From: Acidimicrobiia bacterium
GTDB taxonomy: Bacteria > Actinomycetota > Acidimicrobiia > Spongiisociales > ZC4RG35
Direction: 5' to 3'
Assembly: GCA_050741915.1 (NCBI GenBank)
Contig: JBOGEX010000126.1
Span: forward strand, 10,668-74,667
Length of the DNA: 64,000 nt
Of this stretch, positions 10,660 to 57,042 are shown one piece after another (positions within the stretch are counted from its first letter, which is position 1; each line of letters opens with the position of its first letter). Made by a program: the position numbers and the translations under genes. The notes beneath the pieces were generated by a model, which worked only from the letters and a program-made list of their open reading frames with translations, made no database searches and was not told the DNA's origin.

Positions 10660-11194
10660 TCGAGCAGCCGAGCGAGGGAACCTGCTCCACCTTGACCTCC
10701 TCGCGGGCGAGAACAGCCTTCGTCGCCGCCCGCAAGCTCTCCCCGGTCACCTCGACCTCGTTACTGGGTCTGGCGCCGTCGAACTGACCTCGGTAAGCCA
10801 GGCGATGCTCATGGTCGAAGAGGAAGAAGTCGGGGGTGCAGGCGGCGGTGAAGGCGCGGGCTACTTCCTGGCTCTCGTCGAAGAGAATGGGGAAGATGAA
10901 GCCCACTTCGTTGGCCACTCGGGCCTGGTTCTTTGGGGCGTCCTCGGGGTAGGCGTTGGTGTCGTTGGAAGCAATGCCGACGATCGCCAGTTCGGTCCCG
11001 CCAAAGTCATTGCCGAACCGAGCTAGCCCACTCTGGATCCGCTTTACGTATGGGCAGTGAACGCAAAGGAACACGACCAGGAGTGGTCGATCGACGAAGT
11101 CGTCGGAACCGACGCTCTCGCCAGTGCGAACGTCGGTGAGGAGGAACTTGGGGAGCTCGGTGCCGAGCGAGAGCATTGTCGAAGCAACAGCCAT
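10619..11194 (-). CDS. Thioredoxin-fold thiol-disulfide oxidoreductase (redoxin/TlpA-like)
   Basis: CxxC motif in LVVFLCVHCPYV; about 190 aa thioredoxin-like fold. Confidence 0.65.
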   Translation of the reverse strand: MAVASTMLSLGTELPKFLLTDVRTGESVGSDDFVDRPLLVVFLCVHCPYVKRIQSGLARFGNDFGGTELAIVGIASNDTNAYPEDAPKNQARVANEVGFIFPILFDESQEVARAFTAACTPDFFLFDHEHRLAYRGQFDGARPSNEVEVTGESLRAATKAVLAREEVKVEQVPSLGCSIKWRPEGAPVTLR

Positions 11195-41870: not shown

Positions 41871-41883
41871 GCACTTCTCCTTT

Positions 41884-41945
41884 GGAAAACCCTGGGTTTT
41901 TACCGTCGTCCTACAACGGTTCCAGCCCAGAGAATTGCGTTTCGA
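41884..41945 (-). repeat. About 62-bp palindromic element, copy 3 of 4 (oriented with the minus-strand gene whose stop it contains)
   Basis: Plus-strand read: GAAAACCCTGGGTTTTTACCGTCGTCCTACAACGGTTCCAGCCCAGAGAATTGCG. Its reverse complement shares TTCTCTGGGCTG ... AACCCAGGGTT with copies 1 and 2. It encodes the last 9 residues and the stop of the gene at 41911-43017. Confidence 0.7.
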
Positions 41946-43017
41946 CCTCTCCGTGCCAAAAGCGGCCGAGGCAATGGGCCTCCTCCGCCACCGCGGCAAG
42001 GTGTCGCTTCGACAGAGCGAGGTGCTCGATCACCAGCCGCATTGGCGACGCTTTTTCGAATCGCCAGATCGCTGCCACTTCTCCGTCGACGAGGACGGTG
42101 CCTTTGATCGGACCTTTAACGTCGGCAAATCTCCGCTTCTGGTCAGCGCCAAACCGAGAACGGTCGGCGTGTCCCAGGAGCAGATTGTCGTACTCGGGCA
42201 AGAACCGAACCGGAGCGGTGGTGTCAGGGTCGGGCCGGGGCGCGTCGGGCAAATCGAACAACTCGGTTCCGCGCTTGTTGCGAAACGTCACCAGCCGTGG
42301 CCGCAGCCCCTCGACCACCTTCCGGAGTCCGGTAAGCCGCGACCAGTTCGAGATGTCGGCGACCGAGGCTGGACCGAAGGCCGCCAGATACTTGAGCACC
42401 ATCGCGGCAGTTGACGGCGCCGGGTCCATTGGCTTTCCCACCCAAGACTCGAGGGTGGCTAGTTCGACCTGCCGGGTCTTTCCCCAAACTCCCCGTGGAG
42501 GAGCCTGGATCAGAGGGAGGAGGCATCGACATGCATAGACCAGAGCGGTGGGGTTGAGGCTCGGGAAAGTCTCTGCCAGGGCTGCCCGCAACTCGGGACC
42601 GCTCAGAGGCCGCCATGCCAGGAGCGGCCGGGCAACTGCCAGAACCGGCTCGATGTCGACTCCGGCCAACGCCGGAGCAAAATCGCGATGGCGGGAAAGC
42701 TCGGCGGTGAGTACCGGTTGGGTGAGGGGGCGCAGCCAGAGCGCATCATCGGCGGTGAGCAAGTGGATCGTTGCCCTCATGGCGACGATTCGCACGAGGG
42801 ACCGGTCCTCGATCAGCTTGCCCAAATGAGTCGGCTCGAAACTGTCCAGCCTCGACCACAGGGCCAGATAGGGATCGAGGGGATTCTGGGCCTGGAGACC
42901 GACGAGCATTTCGACGGCGGACATGAGAGGCATCGATGATCGTCGCAATAAGAGCTGACGCTCGAGCGAGGCTCGATTCAGTTGGCGGTTGGTGATGAGT
43001 TCAGCGGACGAGGGCAT
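41911..43017 (-). CDS. Winged-helix DNA-binding domain protein (AlkZ/YcaQ-like, DUF1006)
   Basis: 368 aa; architecture and composition match the AlkZ-like DNA-glycosylase/YcaQ family. Family call from overall resemblance. Confidence 0.6.
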   Translation of the reverse strand: MPSSAELITNRQLNRASLERQLLLRRSSMPLMSAVEMLVGLQAQNPLDPYLALWSRLDSFEPTHLGKLIEDRSLVRIVAMRATIHLLTADDALWLRPLTQPVLTAELSRHRDFAPALAGVDIEPVLAVARPLLAWRPLSGPELRAALAETFPSLNPTALVYACRCLLPLIQAPPRGVWGKTRQVELATLESWVGKPMDPAPSTAAMVLKYLAAFGPASVADISNWSRLTGLRKVVEGLRPRLVTFRNKRGTELFDLPDAPRPDPDTTAPVRFLPEYDNLLLGHADRSRFGADQKRRFADVKGPIKGTVLVDGEVAAIWRFEKASPMRLVIEHLALSKRHLAAVAEEAHCLGRFWHGEVETQFSGLEPL

Positions 43018-43763
43018 CGAGACCGATGGTGATCATCCGTTCCACCGCTTCGTGCACCACCGGTCGGTCGGGGTTGTAACCCTCCATCGAGTCGTCCTTC
43101 TCGAGAAGGGGATTCCCATCGATGGCCAGGATGGCTCCTGCCGTGGATCCATGTAGTGAAGCAAGGACGAGAAGAGCGGCGACCTCCATTTCCACTGCCA
43201 CCAGTCCCGCTTGTTGCCACATCGGGAGACTGCTGCCGAGAACCGCGTGTGGATAGAACGACGCCAGGGTCAGCACGATCCCGCGATGGACCTCGACCCC
43301 GGCGGCCGCGGCCGCCCCCAGCAGACTGTCGACCACCTTATGGTCAGCCACCGCTGGATACTCGATCGGGACCACTTGCTGGGTGTAACCATCGGTACGG
43401 ACCGCGGCAGTGGCCACGACCAGGTCCCCGTCGAGGACGTTTGCTTGCAGGCCTCCGGCGGTGCCTGCTCGAATCACTCGTCCGGCACCCGCTCGAAACA
43501 ACTCCTCGAAACAGACTGCCGCTCCGGCGCTTCCCACCCCGTGGGACACGGTGGCTACCTCGATATCGTGGCGACGGCCGGCGAACGAGACGTACTCGCG
43601 AGTGCGGCCCAGCTCCCTCACATCGTCGAGGTGTTCCGCGGCCTTCTCGGCTCGGTTGGGATCGCCGACCACCAGCACCCGCTTCGGGAGGTCGCCGGCC
43701 CGAAATCCGAGAATGGGCAGCTTGGAATCCTCGGGGACTCGGATGGGAGCCATCACCTCACCC
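43001..43763 (-). CDS. PNP/UDP family-1 nucleoside phosphorylase or nucleosidase (DeoD/MtnN-like)
   Basis: Start at ATG 43763 with RBS GGGGTGAGGTG. Motifs SHGVGSAGAAVCFEEL and VAVEMEVAAL match the hexameric PNP/MTA-nucleosidase fold. 254 aa. Confidence 0.7.
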
Positions 43764-44830: not shown

Positions 44831-46771
44831 CTAGATCACCCGCTCGTTTCCACCGTCGATCGGAATCTGGGCACCGGTGGTCGCTCGATAACGGTCCGAG
44901 CACAGATCAGCGACAATGGTCGCCACGGTCCTGGCGCTGACCTCAATCTTGAGCAGGTTGCGACGCTTGTAGTCCTCCACTTCGAGGCCATACGCGGCGG
45001 CCCGAGACCGAATCAGATCCTCGGTCCAGATGCCGGTGTCGAAAACACCGTCGGGGTGAACGATGTTGACTCTGATGCCGGCCTCGGCCCATTCCAGCGC
45101 CGCGACGCGGGCGAGCTGAGTCAAGGCGGCTTTCGAGGCCGAGTACGCCGCCGCTCCCTTGCCTGGAGCGGTGGCATTGCGCGAAGCAACCACCGCCACT
45201 CTTCCTCCTACCGGCGATCGACGCAAGAACGGTTCGAGATCACGCAGCAGCGCACCAACCGCCCGCACATTTACTGCCATGACCCGATCCCATGAGTCCA
45301 AGTCGAGGTCGGCCACGTTCTGGGACTCCCCGAAGACGCCAGCTCCGATGACGGCGATGTCGATCCCCCCGAAGTGATCGATAGCCTGGGCAATGGCCGC
45401 CTGTTGCTCACGATCCTTGGTGACGTCGAGTTGCAACCCGAGACAGCCGGGCTCACTGATCGTCGGATCAGCGATGTCGAACCCGACTACTGCCGCTGCC
45501 CGATCGAGAAGCTCCATGGCACATGCTCGACCGATGCCCGATGCCGTTCCGGTCACGAGAGCGACCATTCCCCCGAACTCGGGCGGCGGACCCGAACGCT
45601 GGAGCTTGGCCTGTTCGAGGTCCCAGTACTCGCAGTCGAAAAGATCCTCGGGCGATAGTGCCTGGTAGCCGCCCAGCTGATCTTCGGCGCGCTCCAGGAC
45701 CGGGATCGTGTGGTGGTAGATGTCGGCAGCTATGTCGGCTTCGGCTAGCGAGCGCCCGGTGGTGAGCATGCCCCACGCCGAATCGAGCACGACCCGCGGC
45801 GACGGATCGAGCATTTGCAGGTCGCGTCCTGTCCGCTCTTGGTTGGCCTCGAAATATTCGGTGTAGTCCTGGGCGAACTGGCCGACATCTCGCCCGATCA
45901 ACGGCGCGCGCTTGGTCCGGATGACGTGGTCGGGCGTGAGGGGACCGCGGCTAGCGAGCGAGGCGAGGTCGGGCCGAGATACGAACCGGGCGACATCGGG
46001 ATCGGCGTGGCGGCGGACAATCATCGGTGCTCCGGCCACCTGCGAAATCCTCTGGCGAAGCTCGGCCAGTTCAACCGGGTTGGACGGCGGCAGGGGCTTG
46101 GAAGTAGCTGTCGAGGGCGGCCCCAGGTAAAGCTCGGCTTTGGCAATCAACTCGACGTGCCGTTCATAGGCCTCGCGAGTGGTGTCGCCGAAGGTAAAAA
46201 GCCCATGGTTCATCAGGACCATTCCGATCGCCGAGGTATCGGTCGGCCACACTTTTCGAACCAGCCGAGCGAGATCGAATCCCGGCATGACATAGCGGAC
46301 AACCACCACGTCATCGCCGTAGGCGTCGCGGACGCGGGCGTCACCGTTGGCCAAGTTGGTCAAGTTGACGATTACATCGGCGTGCGAGTGCTGTACCGCC
46401 GGATAAGGGAGGAAGGCGTGAAGCAGGCTCTCCACTGATGGCTGAGGAGCTCCCGGGTCGAGGCGAGCTGCCGACAGCTCGCGCATCATTTCCTGATCGG
46501 AGATGGCCTCGAGGTCGAGCAGCTCGACGAGCCTGCTCATGCGCAAGGGTGTGAATCCGGCAGCTTCGATCGTGCTCAGGTCCCAGCCCGATCCCTTCAC
46601 GAAGAGAGCGTCGATCTCGATCCCGGTTATGTCGAGGTATGACCCCTTGACCGAAGTATTGCCACCACCGTGGAGCACGAGGCCCCGGTCGGATCCCAAA
46701 AGGCGCGAGCCATAGACACATTGCTCGAGCGGCGACGAACCGGCGTCGGCGTCTATCCAGCGGCTCTCCAT
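44831..46771 (-). CDS. Bifunctional class II aldolase/adducin-domain plus short-chain dehydrogenase fusion (RhaD/YuxG-like)
   Basis: Start at ATG 46771 (MESRWIDADAG...). N-terminal class II aldolase domain (HGGGNTSVK, metal-binding VQHSHADV). C-terminal SDR domain (TGTASGIGRA, YSASKAAL). 646 aa. Confidence 0.8.
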   Translation of the reverse strand: MESRWIDADAGSSPLEQCVYGSRLLGSDRGLVLHGGGNTSVKGSYLDITGIEIDALFVKGSGWDLSTIEAAGFTPLRMSRLVELLDLEAISDQEMMRELSAARLDPGAPQPSVESLLHAFLPYPAVQHSHADVIVNLTNLANGDARVRDAYGDDVVVVRYVMPGFDLARLVRKVWPTDTSAIGMVLMNHGLFTFGDTTREAYERHVELIAKAELYLGPPSTATSKPLPPSNPVELAELRQRISQVAGAPMIVRRHADPDVARFVSRPDLASLASRGPLTPDHVIRTKRAPLIGRDVGQFAQDYTEYFEANQERTGRDLQMLDPSPRVVLDSAWGMLTTGRSLAEADIAADIYHHTIPVLERAEDQLGGYQALSPEDLFDCEYWDLEQAKLQRSGPPPEFGGMVALVTGTASGIGRACAMELLDRAAAVVGFDIADPTISEPGCLGLQLDVTKDREQQAAIAQAIDHFGGIDIAVIGAGVFGESQNVADLDLDSWDRVMAVNVRAVGALLRDLEPFLRRSPVGGRVAVVASRNATAPGKGAAAYSASKAALTQLARVAALEWAEAGIRVNIVHPDGVFDTGIWTEDLIRSRAAAYGLEVEDYKRRNLLKIEVSARTVATIVADLCSDRYRATTGAQIPIDGGNERVI

Positions 46772-47529
46772 CAGTAGGGAGTGTCCCCGCCGTCGACGTT
46801 GATCGCTTGGCCCCGGATAATCAGAGCATCGTCGGAGAGGAGGAATGCGATGACCCGAGCGACCTCGGCCGGCTGGACCTTGCGACCCAACTGCGTCGGG
46901 CCCATTCCGGCCAGTAACTCGGCGGCGGGAACCCCAACTCGGGGCTCGAGCCATTGCGCCACCCCGGCCAGCATTGGGGTGTCGACCCCTCCCGGGCAAA
47001 CCGCGTTGACGTTGATGTTGTGCTCAGCCCATTCCATCGCCAGCGAGCGGGTAAGGCTGATCACGGCGGCTTTCGCCGCGTTGTAGGCCGCCATGTTCTT
47101 ATAACCGACCTTCCCGCAATTCGAGGCGACGTTGACGATCGCCCCGCCTCGTTCCTTGAGATGATTTCCGACCTGACGCGAACATAGAAAAGTTCCGGTG
47201 ACGTTGACGTCAAGCTGGTGACGCCAATCGCTCGCGCCTGCGTCCCAAGCCGTGTCGAGCACAACCGCCCCAGCGTTGTTGACCAACCCGTCGATGCCGC
47301 CCCAGGCATCGACGACCTCCTCCACCGCCGCGGCCACGTCTGCTTCGTTGGTGACGTCGCAAGCGATGGGAAGGGTACGGGCGATATCAAGGGCGGCAGC
47401 GGCCGTCCGCACGCGGTCACCATCCAGATCCACCATCGCCACCAGGGCGCCTCGCTCCAGCAAGACTTCCGTGATCGCCGAGCCGATTCCCCCTCCGGCC
47501 CCAGTCACCACGTACCTCCTGCCCTCCAC
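46771..47529 (-). CDS. Short-chain dehydrogenase/reductase (SDR)
   Basis: GTG 47529 (VEGRRYVVTGAGGGIGSA...). NNAG motif and catalytic YNAAK. Its stop overlaps the ATG of the aldolase fusion. Confidence 0.75.
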   Translation of the reverse strand: MEGRRYVVTGAGGGIGSAITEVLLERGALVAMVDLDGDRVRTAAAALDIARTLPIACDVTNEADVAAAVEEVVDAWGGIDGLVNNAGAVVLDTAWDAGASDWRHQLDVNVTGTFLCSRQVGNHLKERGGAIVNVASNCGKVGYKNMAAYNAAKAAVISLTRSLAMEWAEHNINVNAVCPGGVDTPMLAGVAQWLEPRVGVPAAELLAGMGPTQLGRKVQPAEVARVIAFLLSDDALIIRGQAINVDGGDTPY

Positions 47530-47534
47530 TGCGG

Positions 47535-48269
47535 CTACCACGTGGGGTTGGTAAGCACGCCCCCGTCGACCACCAGGTCGACGCCGGTGATGAACCTGGC
47601 CAGATCGGAGCACAGAAACACGCAGGCATCTCCGACATCGTCGGCTGTGCCCAGGCGTCCCAAGGGAACAGCCGACATCCAACGCTGCACTCCCTCCGGC
47701 CAGTCCCGAGCCAAACCGGGGCGATCGATCAGACCTGGGGAGACGGTGTTGATTCGGATGCGATGCCGGCCGAGCTCCGAGGCCGCCGCCCGGGCGTGCA
47801 TCCGCACCGCCGCCTTGGCAGTGGCGTAGTGGCCGTGTAAGGGCGCCGGCTGAATTCCCTCGATGGAGGCGATGTGGACGATCGATCCGCCCTCTCCCTG
47901 AGCGATCATTTGCCGACCAACCACCTGAGTCATGCGATGAACCGCGGTCACGTTGGTTTCCAGCATGGATCGGAAGTCCTCATCAGAAACGTTCAGCGTG
48001 GAGGCGAGCGGTTGGATACCGGCGTTATTGACCAATCCATCAACCCGGCCAAAAGCCTCCAACGCCGCTTCCACTATCAGGGTCGGAGTCGCGGCCGCAT
48101 TCAAGTCGACCTCGAGGACGACCTGTTTTGGTGCCGTGTCCAACACCGGAGAGGAGCGGGTGGCCAGCACCAAAGAAGCGTTGGCCGTGGCGAAGCTCCG
48201 GGCGATGCCCGCTCCCACCCCTCCACCGGCTCCCGTGACGATTATCACTCGGCCGCTGAGATCGATCAT
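47535..48269 (-). CDS. Short-chain dehydrogenase/reductase (SDR)
   Basis: ATG 48269 (MIDLSGRVIIVTGAGGGVGAG...). NNAG motif and catalytic YATAK. 245 aa. Confidence 0.75.
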   Translation of the reverse strand: MIDLSGRVIIVTGAGGGVGAGIARSFATANASLVLATRSSPVLDTAPKQVVLEVDLNAAATPTLIVEAALEAFGRVDGLVNNAGIQPLASTLNVSDEDFRSMLETNVTAVHRMTQVVGRQMIAQGEGGSIVHIASIEGIQPAPLHGHYATAKAAVRMHARAAASELGRHRIRINTVSPGLIDRPGLARDWPEGVQRWMSAVPLGRLGTADDVGDACVFLCSDLARFITGVDLVVDGGVLTNPTW

Positions 48270-48994
48270 CTGGTCCTGACCAAAGAAAAGGTGAAGCGTC
48301 CTTCGATGAAGTACGTGCGGTTGAACATCACTGGCCGAGCGCTGTCGTGGTAGTGAACCTGGGACAAAAGCACGTAGGCGGCGTTTCGTGGGCGCTTTCC
48401 CCAACCGATGTCGCCTCCGGCGGCGGCATGGATATCGGTAACGGCGGTGGCGACGTCGATGCCGTTTTTCGTCAGGGCTTCAAAGAGAGAACCAGTCAAC
48501 GACGACACCTCGAAATCCGGTGGCAGCAGGCGACGATCAATGGCGTCATAGGAGAACGCCACCACTTGGCCCGACGCCGTCAGCGAACGGTTGGTCGCAA
48601 TTACCAGAGCACCCTCACCCAGTTCGAGTCGGTCCCTTTCGTCGGGGGTAGCCGCTCTCACCCGGCGCGAGCGGTAGCTCATGCCCGGCTCGAGACCGGA
48701 GAAGCGAATGGTCGCCGACAAAGACTCGAGCCGGCGAAGATCGGCCCTGATCTCGGCCTGAGCAGGCGTGGCAAAGGTGCCGAGGCCATGACGAGTGATC
48801 GTGAGGCCCAAGCTCTCGAGCCGCCCGAGAGCGCTGCGAACCGTGGGCCGGGAAACGCCAAACTCGGCACTGAGCTGATGCTCGGTCGGGAGGCGCTCGC
48901 CCGGCTTCCACTCACCCCGTCGCAGCCGATCACTGAGCTCGGAAGCCACCTGGTCGGTCAGTCGGGAAGCCGGCACCGTTCGATCATACGGCAA
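48266..48994 (-). CDS. GntR-family transcriptional regulator (HutC subfamily: GntR HTH plus UTRA effector domain)
   Basis: N-terminal GntR HTH (LPTEHQLSAEFGVSRPTVRSALGRLESLGL) and a C-terminal UTRA-like domain. TTG start at 48994. Its stop overlaps the downstream SDR start. Confidence 0.8.
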   Translation of the reverse strand: MPYDRTVPASRLTDQVASELSDRLRRGEWKPGERLPTEHQLSAEFGVSRPTVRSALGRLESLGLTITRHGLGTFATPAQAEIRADLRRLESLSATIRFSGLEPGMSYRSRRVRAATPDERDRLELGEGALVIATNRSLTASGQVVAFSYDAIDRRLLPPDFEVSSLTGSLFEALTKNGIDVATAVTDIHAAAGGDIGWGKRPRNAAYVLLSQVHYHDSARPVMFNRTYFIEGRFTFSLVRTR

Positions 48995-49005
48995 ACGGTC
49001 GCGTG

Positions 49006-49018
49006 GTTGTCAGACAAC
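49006..49018 (+). promoter_or_regulatory. Perfect palindrome GTTGTCAGACAAC (putative GntR/HutC operator), site 1
   Basis: Lies 12 bp upstream of the gntR-like TTG start and overlaps the cupin stop codon. An identical 13-mer is at 50779-50791. Confidence 0.5.
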
Positions 49019-49462
49019 TCGCGTAAGGCGGGCGATCTCGCTCGACGCCTCTGGATACCGTCTCGTCAGACCTTCCCGATCCCCCAACTCGAACATTTCC
49101 GGCCGATATCCAGGGGCCATCGTCGCCCCTACCAGCGACCAAGCACCGGTCGTTTCAGAGCCCTGCCAAACCCCGGCCGGCACCGACAGACCCGGCCGCT
49201 CGCCGGCGGCTGTATCCATGCCGAGCAGGGGACGTTCGACCCGCCCATCGGGATTCAGCAGGAGAAAGCGCAAGGGTGCACCGGCGTGGAAGTGGTACGT
49301 CTCCCTTGCACTCAATCGGTGCATTGCCGAGAAGTCACGTTGCTGCACCAGGAAGAAGATCGCCGTCGAATATTCGTCGGCCAAGTACTGGGAGTACATG
49401 CCGCCCTCGTCTGGCAGCGGCTTCAGGCCCAAATCGGCGATCAGCCGTTCGGGTCCGATCAC
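49010..49462 (-). CDS. Cupin-domain protein (DUF985-like)
   Basis: 150 aa with the cupin beta-barrel signature (...ETYHFHAGAPLRFLLL...). Confidence 0.6.
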   Translation of the reverse strand: MIGPERLIADLGLKPLPDEGGMYSQYLADEYSTAIFFLVQQRDFSAMHRLSARETYHFHAGAPLRFLLLNPDGRVERPLLGMDTAAGERPGLSVPAGVWQGSETTGAWSLVGATMAPGYRPEMFELGDREGLTRRYPEASSEIARLTRVV

Positions 49463-50763
49463 ACCGACGCCAGAGACATTGCTCGGTCATTCACCTCCGA
49501 ACGGACTCCGGCCAGATCGACGGTCAGGACACCTGTCTCGTCGACAACGCGGCGCCCCCCTACCCACACCCCTTTTATGAGCCCGGGATGACCGGAGTAG
49601 ACGAGGTGGGTGATGAGGTCACGGTCTTCGGTAATCGGCACCAAGGAGTCGGTATCGAGCAGGATCATGTCGGCTCTCGCTCCGGTTCCCAGGTGCCCGA
49701 GATCCTGTCGGCCGAGCGCCAGTGCTCCTTCTCTCGTGGCCATTTCCAGGACGTCGGTGGGTCCCAGGGCACCGGCATCAGCTGCGCGCAGGCGGGCGAG
49801 ACGGAGGGCACCCCTCATATCTTCGAAGAGGTCGAGCCGATCGTGCGAGGCCGGGCCATCGGTCCCGAGGCCAACCCGGATGCCGGCCCTTCTCATCTCC
49901 GTCACCCGGGCAATGCCCGAGGCGTGCTTGCCATTCGACGAGGGGCAATGAGCCACGGCTGCCTCGTGCGTGGCGAGCATCTCGATGTCGTCGTCAGAGA
50001 GCCAAACCGAATGAGCCGCAACTACGGGAGAGTCGAGAATCCCAACTTTTTCGAGGTAGGCCGTTACAGACATGCCGGTGGTCGCGGTGACGGCATCTCC
50101 TTCATGTTCCGCTTCGGCCAGATGGATCTGGATGTGCATTCCGTTCTGCCGAGCCAGGTCGGCGACCATGCGCAAGGCTTCCTCGGCCACGGCATAAGCC
50201 GAATGAGGACCAAAGCCGACGCTGATCAGCTCGTGGTGCTGCCAGCGACGCGCTTCTTCCACCATCGCTTCGACTTGAGACTCCCAATCGCCGAAGCGAG
50301 CCAGGTCTGCGGCCACCAGGATCGGCGGTGTCACCACGCAGCGAAGGCCGGCGCGGTTGGCGGCGTTGGCCACCGCCCGGGGATAGAAGTACATCTCATG
50401 GCTGGTGGTTATCCCATTGCTCAAGAGCTCGGCGGCACCCAGCGTCATCGCCAGTTCCACGTCCGCGGGCGTGAGCCTTCCTTCCCGGGGCCACATCACC
50501 TCGGTGAGCCATCGCGAGACCGGCAGCCCTTCACCCGCCCCCCGCAGGAGGACCATGGGGGTATGGGCATGGGTGTTGATCAGCCCCGGTATAAGCAAAC
50601 CGTGCAGTTCGACTGATTCGCCTTCGAATCTGGGAGCTTCCACGGCAGGGCCAGACCAGGTCACCAGTCCGTCGGTCACGTCGACCGCCGCCCGCGCCAC
50701 TACCTCCGGTTGTGCCGTCATCGTTATCAACCGGTCGCAGAGGAACCTGGTCACGACCGGCAT
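49459..50763 (-). CDS. Amidohydrolase-superfamily nucleoside/nucleobase deaminase (MtaD-like MTA/SAH deaminase or related chlorohydrolase)
   Basis: Start at ATG 50763 (MPVVTRFLCDRLITMTAQPE...). Metal-binding HxH (INTHAHTPM) and downstream His/Asp residues of the ATZ/TRZ-MtaD family. About 434 aa. Confidence 0.7.
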   Translation of the reverse strand: MPVVTRFLCDRLITMTAQPEVVARAAVDVTDGLVTWSGPAVEAPRFEGESVELHGLLIPGLINTHAHTPMVLLRGAGEGLPVSRWLTEVMWPREGRLTPADVELAMTLGAAELLSNGITTSHEMYFYPRAVANAANRAGLRCVVTPPILVAADLARFGDWESQVEAMVEEARRWQHHELISVGFGPHSAYAVAEEALRMVADLARQNGMHIQIHLAEAEHEGDAVTATTGMSVTAYLEKVGILDSPVVAAHSVWLSDDDIEMLATHEAAVAHCPSSNGKHASGIARVTEMRRAGIRVGLGTDGPASHDRLDLFEDMRGALRLARLRAADAGALGPTDVLEMATREGALALGRQDLGHLGTGARADMILLDTDSLVPITEDRDLITHLVYSGHPGLIKGVWVGGRRVVDETGVLTVDLAGVRSEVNDRAMSLASV

Positions 50764-50778
50764 GGTAAGTTTCCGGTA

Positions 50779-50791
50779 GTTGTCAGACAAC
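50779..50791 (+). promoter_or_regulatory. Perfect palindrome GTTGTCAGACAAC (putative GntR/HutC operator), site 2
   Basis: In the divergent mtaD-like/mtnA region, 16 bp upstream of the mtaD-like ATG and overlapping the mtnA TTG start. Identical to site 1. Confidence 0.5.
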
Positions 50792-51844
50792 CTCGAAACC
50801 GCGTCGAACCTTCGGAGTGTCGACTGGGGCGACGACGCCCTGGTGATCATCGATCAGACCTTGCTCCCCGGGGAAGTGAGCTATTTGCGGCTCACCACCG
50901 TCGATCAAGTGGTGCGGGCTATCAAATCCTTGGCCGTGCGCGGAGCGCCCTCGATTGGGGTGGCCGGGGGTTTCGGAGTGATCCTCGCCTTTCGGGAGTT
51001 CTCGACCGAAAAGGCGCAGTTCGTCTCGGCGGTGGAGTCACTGCGCAGGGTTCGACCAACCGCCGTCAACCTCGCCCGATCGGTCGATCGGGTCGCACGA
51101 CGGGCGGAGGAGGGGATGGAAGCGATGCTGGCGGAGGCGACTGCTATCCGCGACGAGGAGATCGCGGCCTGCTGGTCGATGGGCATCAATGGCGCCGAGT
51201 TGCTTGTCGAGTTGTTGGGGAACCGCCCGCAGCGATTGATGACCATCTGCAATACCGGTGGCCTGGCCGCGGTGGAGCGAGGGACGGCACTGGGTGTGAT
51301 TCAGACGATGTTCGAGAGGGGTCTGCTGGAGGAGGCACTGGCGGTCGAGACGCGACCTCTTCTCCAGGGAAGCCGGCTCACCACCTGGGAGCTTGCCCGG
51401 ATGGGAGCGCCCTTTCGCCTGTTGGTGGATTCCGCTGGCCCTTTCGTTCTTGCCCGTGGTGGAGCAGAGGCGGTTCTGACCGGCGCCGACCGAATTGCTG
51501 CCAACGGCGACACCGCCAACAAAGTTGGATCCTTGGCCCTGGCGCTTGGCGCTAGGCACGCCGGGGCACCTTTCATCGTGGTCGCCCCAGAATCGACAAT
51601 CGACGAAGACACTCCCACCGGAGACATGATCGAGATCGAAGACCGCGGCGCCGCCGAGGTGATAGCCGCCGCCGGAATCCAGCTTGCGCCCGAAACCACC
51701 CAGGCTTTGAACCCGGCGTTCGATGTCACACCAGTTGAGCTGATCACTGCCATCGTTACCGACCGGCGGATCGTCAGAGTCGATCGAGGTGAAAAGCTCG
51801 CCGACGTTCCGTTGGGCGAGCGACGCCTCAGAGCTGAACAGTGA
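50780..51844 (+). CDS. mtnA: S-methyl-5-thioribose-1-phosphate isomerase (eIF-2B alpha/beta/delta-like)
   Basis: N-terminus ...RSVDWGDDALVIIDQTLLP (compare the RSVEW...DQ..LP family pattern). A conserved Cys/Asp-containing C-terminal domain. 354 aa. TTG start. Confidence 0.8.
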   Translation: MSDNLETASNLRSVDWGDDALVIIDQTLLPGEVSYLRLTTVDQVVRAIKSLAVRGAPSIGVAGGFGVILAFREFSTEKAQFVSAVESLRRVRPTAVNLARSVDRVARRAEEGMEAMLAEATAIRDEEIAACWSMGINGAELLVELLGNRPQRLMTICNTGGLAAVERGTALGVIQTMFERGLLEEALAVETRPLLQGSRLTTWELARMGAPFRLLVDSAGPFVLARGGAEAVLTGADRIAANGDTANKVGSLALALGARHAGAPFIVVAPESTIDEDTPTGDMIEIEDRGAAEVIAAAGIQLAPETTQALNPAFDVTPVELITAIVTDRRIVRVDRGEKLADVPLGERRLRAEQ

Positions 51845-51860
51845 AATAGGAGGAGGACCC

Positions 51861-52919
51861 ATGAAGAAGTACACCCAGTTGATGACCGCTGTGGGCGTCG
51901 TGACGTTGCTGGCAGCCTGCGCGGGCGAGAGCACCGCCACCACCAACGGCGGGGGTGGCACTGTGACGACGGGAGCCGCCGACGGGCCGACGTTCATCTA
52001 CATCACGCCGAACCCGATCGGCATCAACAAGTTCCTCGAGCTTGGACAGATCGGCACCCAGCGGGCGGCGGAGGCGACTGGCGGTAGCTTCAAAGTCTTC
52101 GAGAGCACCGATCTCAACAGCCGGCGAGCCAACGTCGAGGCTGCCATCGAGGAAGCTCCCGACGTAATCGTCCTCACGACGTTCGAGTTCACGGAGATGG
52201 CAGCCGAGTTTGCTCCCGCCATCCCCGAGCAGGAGTTCATCCTGATCGACGCCTGCCCCGAGTCCGAGTCGCCGATCGAGAACCTCCATTGCGGGGTTTT
52301 CCGCGAGCACGAAGGTGCCTACCTACTCGGTTTGATGGCGGGCAACCTCACCGAAAGCGGCCAGATCGGTTCGGTGGTGGCCCTCGACATTCCGTTCCTC
52401 CATCGTTGGTCGGACAGCTTCGCCCTCGGGGCGCAAACGATCGATCCATCGATCACCGACTCGCAGGTATTCATCGCCGGCGACAACCCGTTCTCCGATC
52501 CCGCCACCGCCAAAGAACAGGCCTTGGCTCTGGCAGCCCAGGGGGCGGATCAGATCTTCGCGGTCGGCGCAGGTTCTAACGGTGGAATCTTCGAGGCGGC
52601 CGTGGAGGAAGGATTCATGACCTACGGCGTGGACGTGAATCAGTGTCCCGATGCCCCGGGATCGATCGTCGACAACAACCTCAAGCTGGTCGACATCGTC
52701 GTCGAACAGCTCATCAACTCGATCCTCGACGGCAGCGCCGAACCGCTGACCTCGTTCGGTCTGGCCGAAGGTGGAACCGGCGTCGTTGCGATCTCAGACG
52801 AACTCGCCGATTCGGAGTGCCTGATCGCCGACTTTCCCGAGATTGTCTCCCAGGTCCAGACCGCGGCCGACCAGATCATCGACGGTTCGCTGGAAGTCCC
52901 CGACCCCCTATTCGGCTGA
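51861..52919 (+). CDS. BMP-family (PnrA/Med-like) nucleoside-binding ABC transporter lipoprotein
   Basis: ATG 51861 with a strong RBS AGGAGGA. Lipobox LLAACAG; BMP-family fold. Confidence 0.8.
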   Translation: MKKYTQLMTAVGVVTLLAACAGESTATTNGGGGTVTTGAADGPTFIYITPNPIGINKFLELGQIGTQRAAEATGGSFKVFESTDLNSRRANVEAAIEEAPDVIVLTTFEFTEMAAEFAPAIPEQEFILIDACPESESPIENLHCGVFREHEGAYLLGLMAGNLTESGQIGSVVALDIPFLHRWSDSFALGAQTIDPSITDSQVFIAGDNPFSDPATAKEQALALAAQGADQIFAVGAGSNGGIFEAAVEEGFMTYGVDVNQCPDAPGSIVDNNLKLVDIVVEQLINSILDGSAEPLTSFGLAEGGTGVVAISDELADSECLIADFPEIVSQVQTAADQIIDGSLEVPDPLFG

Positions 52920-52923
52920 CAAA

Positions 52924-54432
52924 GTGCCGAACGTGCTCGAACTCCGGGGAATCAGCAAGAGTTTCCCCGGAGTTCGTGCCAACGACGACGTGGACCTCGA
53001 GGTTCGCAAGGGCGAAATCCACGCCATCGTCGGTGAGAACGGAGCCGGCAAGACAACATTGATGTCAATCCTGTATGGATTGACGAGCCCCGACGCCGGG
53101 GAGATCATGGTTGATGGGCAATCCGTGCGATTCACCTCGGCCCTCGACGCGATTGCCGCCGGGCTGGGAATGGTTCATCAAGCCTTCAAGCTCTTCCCAA
53201 CCATGACCGTGGCGGAAAACGTGGTATTTCGCAACGAGCCTCGCCATGGCATCTTTCTCGATCGCGAGGAAGCAGCCGAACGAGTTCGAGCGTTGGGCTC
53301 GGAGTACGGGCTGGCGGTTGACCCGCAGGCACGAATCGAGGATCTGCCCGTCGGGGTTTTGCAACGGGTCGAGATTCTCAAGGCCCTCTATCGGGATGCT
53401 CAGGTTCTGATTCTCGACGAGCCCACGGCGGTCTTGACTCCGCAAGAAAGAGACAACCTCTTTGTAACCCTCCGGCGTCTCAAAGAGCGTGGGAGGACGG
53501 TGATCTTTATCACCCACAAACTTGCCGAGGTCATGGCGGTCTCCGATCGCGTCACCGTCCTGCGGGCCGGAAGGGCCGTCGCCCATCTCGACACCGCCTC
53601 GACCTCGCCGGCGGAGATGTCCCGGCTGATGACCGGACGGACCGTGGACCTCGACAGCCGCCCTCCACCATCGAATCTCGGAGCGCCGGTTCTCACCGTT
53701 GCCCACCTGACAGTGCGTGACGAGCACGGCTTCGCTCGGGTCGACGACGTTTCCTTTGAAGTCCGCTCCGGTGAGATTCTGGGGGTGGCGGCCGTGGCCG
53801 GCAACGGCCAGCACGAGCTCATCGAGGCGATCTGCGGTCTTCGGTCCCCCGATCAAGGATCGATCGCGGTGGGCGAGCGCGACGTTGCCACCGCCGACAT
53901 CGCTACCACCCGGCAAAGCGGCCTGGCATACATCCCCGAAGATCGGCATCGAGTGGGTACCGCTGCGGGAGGAGAGGTCTGGGCCAACCTGGTGATGGGA
54001 TTCCAGCGGTTAAAGCGATTTCGCCGGGGACGTTTCATTCGCCGGGCGGAGGTCGAAGAGCACGCGCGACGCATCATTGCCGATTACGACGTTCGCGTGT
54101 CGGGACCAGACGTTTCGGCCCACACTCTCTCGGGGGGAAACCTGCAGAAGGTGGTGGTCGGACGGGAGATGTCTCATGCCGCTCCGTTACTGGTGGCGGA
54201 ACAGCCGACCCGGGGTGTGGATGTCGGCGCCATCGAGTTTTTCCACCGCCAGCTCGTCGACTATCGGGATAAGGGCGGTGGGGTGCTGTTGTTGTCAGCG
54301 GAGTTGAGGGAGCTGCTGGCGCTTTCCGGCCGGATGGTGGTCATGTACGAGGGCCGGATAGTTGCCGAACTCGATCCGGCCGAAACGGACGAGGCAGAGC
54401 TGGGCTTTTTTATGACCGGGGGGACGAAGTGA
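52924..54432 (+). CDS. ABC transporter ATP-binding protein with two fused nucleotide-binding domains (nucleoside/sugar type)
   Basis: GTG 52924. Two Walker A / signature sets (GENGAGKTT ... LSGGNLQKV). Confidence 0.8.
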   Translation: MPNVLELRGISKSFPGVRANDDVDLEVRKGEIHAIVGENGAGKTTLMSILYGLTSPDAGEIMVDGQSVRFTSALDAIAAGLGMVHQAFKLFPTMTVAENVVFRNEPRHGIFLDREEAAERVRALGSEYGLAVDPQARIEDLPVGVLQRVEILKALYRDAQVLILDEPTAVLTPQERDNLFVTLRRLKERGRTVIFITHKLAEVMAVSDRVTVLRAGRAVAHLDTASTSPAEMSRLMTGRTVDLDSRPPPSNLGAPVLTVAHLTVRDEHGFARVDDVSFEVRSGEILGVAAVAGNGQHELIEAICGLRSPDQGSIAVGERDVATADIATTRQSGLAYIPEDRHRVGTAAGGEVWANLVMGFQRLKRFRRGRFIRRAEVEEHARRIIADYDVRVSGPDVSAHTLSGGNLQKVVVGREMSHAAPLLVAEQPTRGVDVGAIEFFHRQLVDYRDKGGGVLLLSAELRELLALSGRMVVMYEGRIVAELDPAETDEAELGFFMTGGTK

Positions 54433-55505
54433 TCAGCCAGAGCTCGTCAAACCGACTTTCCGTCGCCCTGGCCATCGCGGCCGCATTGCTGATCGGCGCC
54501 ATCGTGATCGCTCTCTCCGGTACCAACCCGGTGTTGGCTTATCGAGAGATGGTTGATGGCGCCTTGACCGGCTCCGGCCTTCGCAACACGTTGGCCCGAA
54601 TGATCCCGATTGTGGGAATGGGGCTGGCGCTCTCGATCCCGTTCCGCGCCGGAGTGATAAACCTGGGAGGTGAGGGTCAGATGGTGCTGGGCGGGCTGGC
54701 CGGGACTCTCGTTGCCATCTACCTCCCCGGCCCGCCGGCGCTAGCCATCGTGGCGGCGATTCTGGCGGGGGCTGTGGCCGGCTCTTTTTGGGCCTTTCTT
54801 GCGGCCGCCGGCCAGATCTGGCTCAAGCTGCCGATTTTGATCAGCTCGCTGCTTCTGGCCTATCCGGCCCGGGCGATCACCAGCTATCTGGTCCGCTTTC
54901 CTTTCGCCGACCCAACCGTCACTTCCTCCTCGACAGTCCCGGTGCCATTGCCCAACCGCATCCCCAAGCTCCCGCTGTTCGGAGGAATCTCGGCCAGCAT
55001 CATCCTGCTCGCTCTTTTCTTGATAGCGATTGCCGTCTTCAACCAGCGAACCGTGGCGGGCTATGAGACGAGGATGACAGGGTTCAACTCTCGCTTCTCG
55101 CGCTATGGGGGAGTGGGAGTCGACCGGCAGGTGATCTGGGTCATGATCGCTTCGGGGGCGATCAGCGGGGTGATCGGCACCCATCTGGTGGTCGGGGAAA
55201 CATATCGGTTCCTCGATGGCGACTTGGTTGTCTCTGGTTTCGCCTGGACCGGGTTGCTCGTCACGCTTCTGGCTGCCCATCGTCCCCTACCGATGCTGGC
55301 GGCAGGGGCGTTTTTTTCCGCCTTGCAGATCGGCGGTCTGGCTATGCAGCGGAATGTCAACGTTCCCTGGCAGATCGCTCTTGTCCTGCAGGCGGTGGTA
55401 ATCGTCATGCTCGCCGGTCGTTTCGTCCTCAGCTGGCGCCAGCGGGAGAAAGCCGACGAGGTTCCCATGGTGGAGGGGGAACTCACCGTGACGGGCGAGG
55501 TCTGA
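54429..55505 (+). CDS. ABC transporter permease (BMP-system permease 1)
   Basis: Polytopic 358-aa permease. GTGA overlap with the ATPase. Confidence 0.75.
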   Translation: MISQSSSNRLSVALAIAAALLIGAIVIALSGTNPVLAYREMVDGALTGSGLRNTLARMIPIVGMGLALSIPFRAGVINLGGEGQMVLGGLAGTLVAIYLPGPPALAIVAAILAGAVAGSFWAFLAAAGQIWLKLPILISSLLLAYPARAITSYLVRFPFADPTVTSSSTVPVPLPNRIPKLPLFGGISASIILLALFLIAIAVFNQRTVAGYETRMTGFNSRFSRYGGVGVDRQVIWVMIASGAISGVIGTHLVVGETYRFLDGDLVVSGFAWTGLLVTLLAAHRPLPMLAAGAFFSALQIGGLAMQRNVNVPWQIALVLQAVVIVMLAGRFVLSWRQREKADEVPMVEGELTVTGEV

Positions 55506-55512
55506 TGTAGAC

Positions 55513-56427
55513 ATGTTTGATCAGCTTTTCGACGGGGCGCTGCTCGAATCGGTGGTCCGAGCGCTGATACCGATTCTTTTGGCTGCCATCGGGGGGTTGG
55601 TGTGCGAGAGAGCCGGGGTCTTTCAGATCTCGCTAGAAGGAATGATGCTTGTCGGCGCATTTGTTGCCGTAGCCGGCTCCTACCTCGGGCAAAGCGCGTT
55701 GTTGGGAGTCACCATCGCCATGGTCGTAACCGCACTGTTCTCGCTCATCCTTGCGTACGGGGCAGTCAGCCGGCGAGGCGATCCGATCGTGCTGGGGGTG
55801 GCGGTGAACCTGCTCGCCCTCGGCTTGACGAGCTTCTTCTTGCCCCAGCTCTTCGGAGTCCGAGGAGTGTTGCAGCACCCACGGATCGACGGTCTCGATC
55901 AGTTCGGCGTTCCGATCCTGTCCGACATTCCCCTCGTTGGCCAGGCGCTGTTCAATCTCACGGTTCCGGCCTATATGGCACTTTTGGCGATACCGGTGAT
56001 CTGGGTGTTTCTTTTCCGCACTCCGATCGGTTTGCGCCTGCGCGGGGTGGGCGAACGACCGGCCTCGGCTGAGACCCTGGGAGTGAGTCCGACTCAGTAC
56101 AAATACGCAGCCGTGGTTTTCTCCGGTTTGGCGTGCGGTCTCGCCGGAGCGCAGCTGGCGCTGGGAAACGTGGTTCAGTTCGCCGAGAACATGAGCTCCG
56201 GACGGGGATGGATTGCGGTGGTGGCGGTCATGCTGGGTCGGGCCCATCCGGTCGGAGTGCTGGGCGCCAGCGCCCTTTTCGGACTCGCCGAAGGTTTGGG
56301 TTTTCGCCTGCAAGGAAACGGTCTTCCGGTCCAGATCACCGATGCGCTTCCTTATGTGGTCACGCTGATCGCCTTGGCCTTGGCCCGGAAGCGCTTCCAA
56401 AGGATCCTCGACCTGACCGCCGCCTAG
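55513..56427 (+). CDS. ABC transporter permease (BMP-system permease 2)
   Basis: Polytopic 304-aa permease. Confidence 0.75.
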   Translation: MFDQLFDGALLESVVRALIPILLAAIGGLVCERAGVFQISLEGMMLVGAFVAVAGSYLGQSALLGVTIAMVVTALFSLILAYGAVSRRGDPIVLGVAVNLLALGLTSFFLPQLFGVRGVLQHPRIDGLDQFGVPILSDIPLVGQALFNLTVPAYMALLAIPVIWVFLFRTPIGLRLRGVGERPASAETLGVSPTQYKYAAVVFSGLACGLAGAQLALGNVVQFAENMSSGRGWIAVVAVMLGRAHPVGVLGASALFGLAEGLGFRLQGNGLPVQITDALPYVVTLIALALARKRFQRILDLTAA

Positions 56428-56436
56428 AGCGGATTA

Positions 56437-56497
56437 TTGAGAAACCCTGGGTTTTTACCGTCGTACAGCGACGGTTCCAGCCCATAGATTCTCATTT
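56437..56497 (-). repeat. About 62-bp palindromic element, copy 4 of 4
   Basis: GAGAAACCCTGGGTTTTTACCGTCGTACAGCGACGGTTCCAGCCCATAGATTCTCATTTCG. It contains the TAA stop (56455-57) and the last 8 codons of the minus-strand gene. Perfect 7-bp inner stem ACCGTCG/CGACGGT. Confidence 0.7.
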
Positions 56498-57042
56498 CGC
56501 CCCCAGATCAGGAGCGAGGCGGCCGCGGCCAGGTGCCAGAAACCGTGTCCCTGCCAGAGGGAGTCGGGCACACACCAGGGCCACCCGGTGCGGGAAAGGG
56601 TGCCGACTACCGCTCCCAGACCGAGCAGGGCTACCGCTCCGAGGGTGGTCTGGCGTCTGCTCCTCAATATCAAGCCAACCGTTCCGGCGGCGAGCATTGC
56701 CTGGGACGGATCGGCGAGGACAGGCGTCAACGCCAGGAGGGAACCGACAAGAAAGGTCGCCGGCCAGAGGCGGCGCCGGCCGATCTCGCTCAGAATTACC
56801 CACATCAGCATCCAGACGATGCTCAGGTCATGAGCGAACTCCCCCCACGGAGGCATGGGACCATGAAAAGCGATCGAACCCACTCCGACCCCGGCGATGA
56901 GGGCGCTGGTGGGAAGGCTGGCACCACGGAGATAGACGACTACGGCGGCGAGTAGAAATCCGAAGGCGGTGGCGGTGTTGACCGGTTGCCCCCACCAGCT
57001 TTCGAGGATCCGCTCGCAGTCAACTGCCGCTCCGGTGAGCAC
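56455..57042 (-). CDS. Hypothetical integral membrane protein
   Basis: 195 aa with 5-6 predicted TM helices; no family recognised. Confidence 0.4.
   Translation of the reverse strand: MLTGAAVDCERILESWWGQPVNTATAFGFLLAAVVVYLRGASLPTSALIAGVGVGSIAFHGPMPPWGEFAHDLSIVWMLMWVILSEIGRRRLWPATFLVGSLLALTPVLADPSQAMLAAGTVGLILRSRRQTTLGAVALLGLGAVVGTLSRTGWPWCVPDSLWQGHGFWHLAAAASLLIWGRNENLWAGTVAVRR

Follow-up and report, generated by a model that had tools for sequence, protein, structure and literature searches.

The 64,000-nucleotide stretch analysed here (the window), positions 10,668 to 74,667 of contig JBOGEX010000126.1 from an Acidimicrobiia bacterium, carries a nucleoside-salvage locus in which one perfect 13-bp palindrome, GTTGTCAGACAAC, occurs at two gene boundaries. 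The first copy (site 1) lies at the junction of a cupin gene and the gene for a GntR-family regulator of the HutC type (gntR), the second (site 2) in the gap between the divergently oriented deaminase and mtnA genes. We consider it very probable, from the conservation and placement of the motif, that both palindromes are operators of the adjacent regulator (48976..48266), which would act as a local repressor. The elements concerned are:

49006..49018, operator site 1 (putative): read on the gene-sense (minus) strand as GTTGTCTGACAAC; the cupin gene ends in it, with its two final codons and stop (GTT GTC TGA)
50779..50791, operator site 2 (putative): at the 16-bp divergent gap between deaminase and mtnA, holding the mtnA start and codons 2–4, TTG TCA GAC AAC
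48266..48976, minus strand: gntR, a GntR winged helix-turn-helix (wHTH) plus UTRA protein (HutC type), 236 aa from GTG 48976 (Pfam PF00392, PF07702)
50780..51844, plus strand: mtnA, S-methyl-5-thioribose-1-phosphate isomerase family, IF-2B fold (Pfam PF01008; TIGR00512, NF004326)
49459..50763, minus strand: amidohydrolase (TRZ/ATZ, 5'-methylthioadenosine and 5'-deoxyadenosine deaminase group), heading the minus-strand operon (Pfam PF01979)
49010..49462, minus strand: Cupin_5 (DUF985) protein (Pfam PF06172)

A scan of the window confirmed that the palindrome recorded in the initial annotation is present on the plus strand in exactly two copies, with no third even when two mismatches were permitted. 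Around 30 exact 13-mer repeat pairs are expected in 64 kb by our own arithmetic, so a lone 13-mer repeat is unremarkable, whereas two identical perfect palindromes at gene boundaries of one locus are rare; the window (ca. 63% G+C) contains 25 perfect 6-N-6 palindromes, and GTTGTCAGACAAC is one of only two that recur. A weight matrix trained on the orthologous sites described below scored the two copies at 23.4 and 23.5 bits, compared with maxima in 50 shuffled windows that averaged 12.6 and reached 17.5 bits. No further operator was detected in the 64 kb, as the runner-up position (14.0 bits) falls inside the shuffle range. When one copy is reverse-complemented the identity between the two reaches 15 bp (GGTTGTCAGACAACT versus the reverse complement GGTTGTCTGACAACT), which agrees with the purine/pyrimidine preference at positions −7/+7 of the orthologous sites.

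Site 2, which takes up most of the 16-bp gap between the two start codons, is separated by 16 bp from the ATG of the deaminase (50763) and includes the mtnA TTG (50780), at which the NCBI annotation also starts the gene; here the coordinates of the initial annotation hold. Site 1 contains the cupin stop (TGA, 49012..49010 on the minus strand) and ends 12 bp from an in-frame TTG at 48994, as had been proposed, though that TTG is probably not where gntR begins. The likely start is GTG 48976, 30 bp from the edge of the site: the regulator is 100% identical to a 236-aa NCBI protein of an Acidimicrobiia metagenome-assembled genome that is annotated from this GTG, and the corresponding start codon in relatives is ATG in locus L001 and GTG in the others (L numbers denote individual loci).

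Conservation of the palindrome with the regulator gene

A profile of 43 orthologs recovered 80 genome loci with a GntR plus UTRA ortholog, at 89–41% protein identity, from Acidimicrobiia, Nitriliruptoria, Limnocylindrales and many Actinomycetes (Cellulomonas, Leucobacter, Propionibacteriaceae, Ornithinimicrobium, Nocardioides, Streptomyces and Modestobacter). With at most one mismatch allowed, GTTGTCNGACAAC was matched 76 times within 250 bp of the gntR ends (43 kb) and 26 times in the other 945 kb, a total of 102 in 988 kb where composition predicts 1.2; most of the 26 distant matches precede mtnA, aldolase or Bmp genes. The same motif emerged from a motif-blind, exhaustive listing of perfect palindromes in the gntR flanks, with arms of 5 or 6 nt and spacers of 0–4 nt: TTGTC-N-GACAA was found in 34 of the 80 loci and GTTGT-N3-ACAAC in 42, while every other palindrome occurred in five or fewer. 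The symmetrised profile reads R-G-T-T-G-T-(C)-N-(G)-A-C-A-A-C-Y, in which G(−3)/C(+3) is essentially invariant and −1/+1 are the most variable arm positions. Both window copies are themselves unchanged among relatives: site 1 is identical in five of them although adjacent synonymous positions and the next 8 nt vary, and site 2 is likewise unchanged and has a comparable placement relative to the mtnA promoter in many lineages.

The initial annotation had staked its proposal on conservation at orthologous loci, and the motif does adjoin gntR orthologs down to 41% identity and across rearrangements that include at least four gene orders (SDR, short-chain dehydrogenase/reductase; arrows give the direction of transcription):

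Window clade: mtnA <- site -> deaminase-cupin-site-gntR-SDR-SDR-aldolase
L011–L017 and L080: cupin <- deaminase, site, gntR ->, site, mtnA -> bmp
L006–L008: SDR1 <- site -> gntR; cupin <- deaminase <- site -> mtnA
Actinomycetes: fucU <- APH-type kinase <- permease <- ATPase <- sugar-binding protein <- mtnA, site, gntR ->, site, aldolase

In all layouts mtnA has a site at its 5' end, and gntR, the aldolase gene and, where present, the deaminase operon usually have one at theirs; in Actinomycetes the aldolase gene has a site of its own at its 5' end. The Actinomycete loci encode an APH-family kinase (presumed to be MtnK-like), RbsD/FucU and a sugar ABC transporter, and some have a stand-alone Aldolase_II gene behind the putative operator. 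One such case is L026 (7808–8470), in which the gene after gntR is by Pfam a stand-alone class II aldolase and not the aldolase/SDR fusion; the fusion is likewise absent from the position downstream of gntR in L035, L036, L066 and L078. Near-perfect copies of the motif, GTTGTCGAACAAC, also occur within the gntR coding region of two Ornithinimicrobium loci, ca. 190 bp past the start (L040:6078 and L057:7190).

As a control we used a profile of the aldolase/SDR fusion, which gave 80 metagenomic loci totalling 949 kb; a mtnA homolog was also present in 34 of these loci, and a GntR ortholog was found in none of the 80, even at tblastn E = 10. Perfect GTTGTNNNACAAC was present in two of these 80 loci versus 48 of the 80 GntR loci (70 sites), a difference with Fisher p = 1.4e-16, or 1.3e-8 for mtnA-bearing loci only, both uncorrected for phylogeny. 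As the motif is scarce in aldolase loci without the regulator, it goes with the regulator and not with the pathway genes as such.

Promoter-like elements and coding sequence at the sites

The orthologous sites occupy the positions expected of a repressor that excludes RNA polymerase, as judged from the promoter-like boxes around them. On the mtnA side of Actinomycete loci the order is TTGACA, 17–18 nt, TAnnnT, 3–12 nt, palindrome, and then a Shine-Dalgarno (SD) sequence and ATG, so that the operator would cover the transcription start. On the aldolase side TTGAC(A/G) is followed after ca. 17 nt by TAGGTTGTC, where the predicted −10 box (TAGGTT) overlaps the left arm, and in the L011–L017 clade the gntR side shows an extended −10, TGGTAGCAT, 4 nt past the palindrome. 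A weaker box, GTTGATTGACAAC, with two mismatches, lies ca. 43 bp from the main mtnA-proximal site in L033, L039, L046, L049, L050 and L059; in these Cellulomonas and Actinotalea-type loci it overlaps the TTGACA −35 of the mtnA promoter, and it may be an auxiliary operator of the divergent mtnA/gntR region.

In the window two boxes correspond to these elements:

50766..50771, plus strand: putative mtnA −10 box TAAGTT, 7 nt before site 2
48984..48989, minus strand: putative internal gntR −10 box TATGAT, 6 nt before GTG 48976, for a leaderless transcript

The first is contained in a non-coding string, GGTAAGTTT, that does not vary within the window clade, and the box recurs in L006 and L007; it would place the start of the mtnA transcript 0–2 nt before the TTG. 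The second belongs to a stretch after site 1, GTTTG(C/T)CGTA(T/A)GATCG-N4-(G/A)TG, which the window clade retains while the 8 nt beside the palindrome vary freely. TATGAT-N6/7-RTG also precedes gntR in L005, L007 and L008, and because gntR heads a separate transcription unit there, a promoter must precede it in these loci. The signature TAWGAT-N6-RTG was found at 12 of the 80 loci compared with 1 of 480 control windows within the gene. TATGAT or TAAGAT 6 nt before a start codon is the signature of a leaderless mRNA, and we infer a gntR promoter at this position, with site 1 (at about −42..−30 relative to the putative leaderless start) overlapping its −35 region (CTGACA, 19-nt spacer). The conserved signature downstream of site 1 thus lends support to the internal promoter suggested in the initial annotation, and the positions of the two sites similarly favour its proposal of autoregulation together with control of the divergent mtnA and deaminase transcripts.

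More widely, gntR is apparently leaderless (TATGAT, TAAGAT or TATCAT-N6/7-RTG) in Acidimicrobiia and a few Actinomycetes, with such starts in L005, L007, L008, L010 and L020. Most Actinomycete gntR orthologs have a clear GGAGG Shine-Dalgarno sequence instead.

In the window clade the operator would double as coding sequence, as site 1 also encodes the cupin Val-Val-stop and site 2 the MtnA Met-Ser-Asp-Asn. The TTG within the palindrome is the only canonical mtnA start in the window clade and in L006 and L007. All five Acidimicrobiia/Nitriliruptoria lineages keep it in frame, with the reading frame open, although lengths differ. We rejected it as a universal mtnA start: Actinomycetes, L011–L017/L080 and L009 have an SD sequence and a downstream ATG or GTG. 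In L008 the mtnA ATG lies 3 nt past the palindrome with no recognisable SD sequence.

The regulator and the alternatives

The assignment of the adjacent gene to the GntR/HutC group in the initial annotation is borne out by Pfam, with the GntR wHTH domain at residues 12–74 (PF00392, 71.9 bits versus a cut-off of 27) and the UTRA domain at residues 100–234 (PF07702, 45.6 bits versus 23.8), and the full-length PDB match is the HutC-type protein 2ra5. The protein falls far below the cut-offs of all named HutC-type NCBIfam equivalogs (HutC, PhnF, TreR, PhnR and Rv0792c), the best scores being 71.7 for HutC TIGR02018 (cut-off 220) and 70 for PhnF (cut-off 156.8). By these profile scores it belongs to an unnamed orthologous group and is an ortholog of no named HutC-type protein.

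Its wHTH domain alone gives AraR (4egy, E = 1e-10) and PdhR (5kvr, E = 8e-13) as top PDB matches, and the contacts known from related structures can be transferred to it. In the structures of NagR bound to DNA, two adjacent guanines are contacted by Arg48, with which the recognition helix starts, and by Arg38, and the wing residue Gly69 makes contact with the minor groove; both arginines are used by FadR, only the second by AraR (PMC4333415). The equivalent of Arg48 (in SRPT) and the wing glycines are invariant in the 43 orthologs, and the equivalent of Arg38, which is Arg in NagR, FadR and PdhR and Asn in AraR, is His (in PTEHQL). By homology, a His at this position would fit a half-site with one invariant G, TTGT and not TGGT. 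AraR resembles the regulator in lacking the first of the two guanine-contacting arginines (PMC4333415). The effector domains of AraR (LacI-like) and PdhR (FCD) differ from the UTRA domain here. The operators of AraR and PdhR differ in length and spacing from those here.

GntR-family operators have the form NyGTNxACNy, and within it most HutC-subfamily motifs are GTMTAKAC, with 4 nt between GT and AC, and FadR-type motifs are GTM-N0-1-KAC (PMC4494728). The palindrome, as GTT-GT-CNG-AC-AAC, satisfies the general form, so that the GntR-type shape claimed in the initial annotation stands. The GT-to-AC separation is 3 nt (GTC-N-GAC) and conserved in the orthologous sites, and the HutC-typical 4-nt core is thus not found; by sequence the spacing is FadR-type although the effector domain is HutC-type.

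An identical 11-bp core, TTGTC-N-GACAA, with 6-nt arms and a 1-nt spacer, is known from the DNase-footprinted operators of two other GntR-family repressors that act over promoter elements: AlkR of Pseudomonas aeruginosa (GntR/VanR; ATTGTCAGACAAT, PMC12042122) and LhgR of P. putida (described as GntR family; TTGTCTGACAA, bioRxiv 10.1101/2020.07.07.187567). AlkR has an all-helical FCD-type effector domain (VanR group) where the present regulator has UTRA (PMC12042122), and the effectors of AlkR and LhgR are acyl-CoA and L-2-hydroxyglutarate, respectively; the genes that they control, in Proteobacteria, are unrelated to those here. NagR (YvoA) of Bacillus subtilis and DasR of Streptomyces share the GntR wHTH plus UTRA architecture, the conserved recognition-helix Arg and wing Gly and a closely related half-site, T-G/T-G-T-C, and act as autoregulated local repressors in sugar or nucleoside catabolism, the role proposed for this regulator too (PMC4333415, PMC4918961). 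They are distant from it (PDB E 5e-10 to 7e-7) and not orthologs, and their regulon is different. The dre sites are even palindromes (TGGTCTAGACCA) with GT-N4-AC. The operator here is odd, with GT-N3-AC, unlike these sites of NagR and DasR.

Several observations count against the repressor reading. A match with at most one mismatch is lacking beside gntR in 28 of the 80 GntR loci, many of which have weaker or displaced sites and some of which are truncated contigs; the Fisher comparison with the control loci carries no phylogenetic correction, as stated above; two control loci, L086 and L130, have the motif without a linked GntR gene; and in the closest clade coding constraint could explain part of the invariance of the sites. 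With regard to promoters, an E. coli-type sigma-70 scan of 48700–51000 returned none, in a phylum whose promoters are −10-dominated, so the window's promoter boxes rest on their conservation across lineages, and inspection of the deaminase side of site 2 in both orientations revealed no convincing TAnnnT at a leaderless or leadered distance.

The absence of an E. coli-consensus promoter, the location of site 1 inside a tightly packed operon and its offset from the putative start of gntR, at which some activators also bind, would suit a GntR protein that binds the sites as an activator or dual regulator, or a site 1 that serves mainly as a transcriptional roadblock within the operon. We regard this as improbable, because in most lineages the sites overlap the −10 box or the transcription start, which is incompatible with activation, and NagR, DasR and AlkR are all described as repressors (PMC4333415, PMC4918961, PMC12042122).

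Still less probable, in our judgement, is that the palindrome is the operator of another transcription factor that co-occurs with the salvage genes while the adjacent GntR protein binds elsewhere. L086, with a perfect operator before mtnA (position 2048), and L130, with one before the aldolase gene (position 829), could be read in this way, and the recognition of the same core by AlkR and LhgR means that it is not exclusive to one protein. However, the contig of L086 ends ca. 600 bp past the aldolase, and both loci may represent regulon members unlinked to the regulator or a regulator gene beyond the contig end. Moreover, 78 of the 80 aldolase loci without the GntR ortholog are also without the motif, which is the dominant palindrome beside gntR; it precedes gntR itself in several gene orders, as is typical of autoregulated local regulators, and the contact residues of the protein fit the half-site.

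We give almost no credence to the repeat as a coincidence or a by-product of coding constraint, a reading that draws on the overlap of both window copies with coding sequence, on the conservation of the MSDN N-terminus and the VV-stop C-terminus in the closest clade, and on the abundance of exact 13-mer repeats in 64 kb. At their fourfold-degenerate third positions GTT and GTC are fixed, although the Leu, Thr and Arg codons beside them show synonymous changes. The palindrome lies outside coding sequence in most other lineages, within 5' untranslated regions or promoters and with an SD sequence and ATG downstream, and coding constraint therefore cannot explain its conservation; together with the excess of matches over the composition-based prediction, this effectively refutes such an origin. 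An inverted repeat at gene junctions might equally be an RNA-level or mobile element (a terminator hairpin, REP-like repeat or transposon end), which we consider negligible as an explanation because six-base arms around one central base leave no room for a hairpin loop, neither site has a T-tract or predicted terminator, Rfam has no match in the window, there are only two copies in 64 kb, and the sites track promoters and not 3' ends.

The repressor reading describes a classical local repressor-operator system whose spacing is atypical of the subfamily and in which regulatory and coding sequence overlap compactly; as a description it is well supported by comparison of the loci, and it calls for no new mechanism.

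The salvage locus and its proposed control

The other genes of the locus are:

47535..48269, minus strand: SDR oxidoreductase 1, immediately 3' of gntR (Pfam; synteny in relatives)
46771..47541, minus strand: SDR oxidoreductase 2 (Pfam; synteny in relatives)
44831..46771, minus strand: bifunctional class II aldolase/short-chain dehydrogenase (Pfam PF00596 plus SDR; NF006196)
Minus-strand operon, listed between the aldolase/SDR fusion and the phosphorylase: class V aminotransferase, minus strand
43001..43753, minus strand: PNP_UDP_1 nucleoside phosphorylase (Pfam PF01048; synteny in relatives)
41911–43017, minus strand: AlkZ-like DNA glycosylase (PF06224), sharing 17 bp with the end of the phosphorylase gene
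51861..56427, plus strand: Bmp/PnrA-type nucleoside ABC transporter, comprising a binding protein, an ATPase and two permeases (Pfam PF02608, open reading frames)

The minus-strand operon is tightly packed, in the order deaminase, cupin, gntR, two SDRs, aldolase/SDR fusion, aminotransferase, phosphorylase and AlkZ-like glycosylase, and the transporter genes lie 3' of mtnA in a synteny that is kept in Acidimicrobiia relatives. MtnA scores above two NCBIfam cut-offs (TIGR00512, 350 bits versus 279; NF004326, 355 versus 271), the first of which identifies it as an MtnA-type 5-(methylthio/deoxy)ribose-1-phosphate isomerase of the dihydroxyacetone phosphate (DHAP) shunt or methylthioribose salvage, and the fusion protein, with its Aldolase_II domain, reaches 899 bits against the NF006196 cut-off of 831. 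Both candidate pathway entry enzymes of the window, the PNP_UDP_1 phosphorylase and the deaminase (49459..50763), score under the NCBIfam cut-offs, in the case of the deaminase for all of its top matches. The AlkZ-like glycosylase gene is syntenic in the closest relatives L002, L004 and L015 and apparently co-transcribed with the salvage operon, and its functional link to it is not obvious.

The whole locus is bracketed by two copies of a repeat of ca. 65 nt (plus strand 41882–41945 and 56437–56500), each placed where convergent genes have their 3' ends and each holding the window's other recurring palindrome, AAACCCTGGGTTT. The repeat, with the core GAAACCCTGGGTTTTTACCGTCGT...ACGACGGTTCCAGCCCA, folds as a nested hairpin, and where the two copies differ in its inner stem the changes are compensatory. 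The repeat has no Rfam match, no third copy in the window and no copy in the related loci.

Under the proposed mechanism a dimer of the regulator would bind each 13–15 bp dyad (R-GTTGTC-N-GACAAC-Y) with one winged-helix domain per half-site. At site 2 it would cover the transcription and translation start of mtnA, which heads an operon of mtnA and the nucleoside ABC transporter, and would thereby shut off both divergent units. At site 1 it would sit over the −35 region of the internal gntR promoter and so exert negative autoregulation on gntR together with the downstream SDR, aldolase and phosphorylase genes; occupancy of this site may also impede read-through from upstream. The regulon would convert 5'-methylthioadenosine or 5'-deoxyadenosine into DHAP and an aldehyde by a DHAP-shunt-like route, with free sugars as probable substrates in Actinomycetes. 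In the Acidimicrobiia version this would proceed through nucleoside uptake, deaminase, phosphorylase, MtnA and aldolase/SDR, and in the Actinomycete version through sugar uptake, RbsD/FucU, an APH-type kinase, MtnA and aldolase, the two versions converging at (5-methylthio/5-deoxy)ribose-1-phosphate. Because one regulator is common to both versions, it presumably senses an intermediate after the convergence, most plausibly 5-methylthio- or 5-deoxy-ribose-1-phosphate or the corresponding ribulose-1-phosphate.

A comparable role is filled in E. coli by the DeoR-family protein MtnR (YjhU), a local repressor of the mtnK-mtnA-aldolase genes of the DHAP-shunt operon, used for 5'-deoxynucleosides and 5-deoxypentoses, for which a phosphorylated effector is suspected and CAAAT-N9-ATTTG is the candidate site (PMC12632272). 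The present regulator differs from it in family (GntR plus UTRA versus DeoR) and in site, as a non-orthologous replacement would. In the literature searched, MtnR of E. coli was the only regulator found for the pathway, with none in Actinomycetota and no described GntR regulator of methylthioribose or DHAP-shunt genes, and the main text of the GntR motif survey does not mention mtn or methylthio genes (PMC4494728).

More tentatively, and with rather less than even confidence, we propose that this GntR/UTRA protein founds an orthologous group that is dedicated to regulating DHAP-shunt-type salvage of S-adenosylmethionine by-products in Actinomycetota and some Chloroflexota, replaces MtnR non-orthologously and uses a FadR-type operator, which in the window lineage doubles as the first four codons of mtnA, its start codon included, on a near-leaderless mRNA, and as the end of the cupin gene. 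If this is true, repressor occupancy, transcription start and translation start would coincide on one 13-bp stretch.

The locus provides a concrete candidate pair of regulator and operator through which Actinomycetota would control their salvage of 5'-methylthioadenosine, 5'-deoxyadenosine and 5-deoxyribose, and with the 15-bp motif the regulon can be delimited in any genome of the group. A regulator common to both versions of the pathway would narrow the effector to intermediates after the entry routes converge. As a clear HutC-type case with FadR-type operator spacing, it also bears on the rules by which specificity is predicted in the GntR family.

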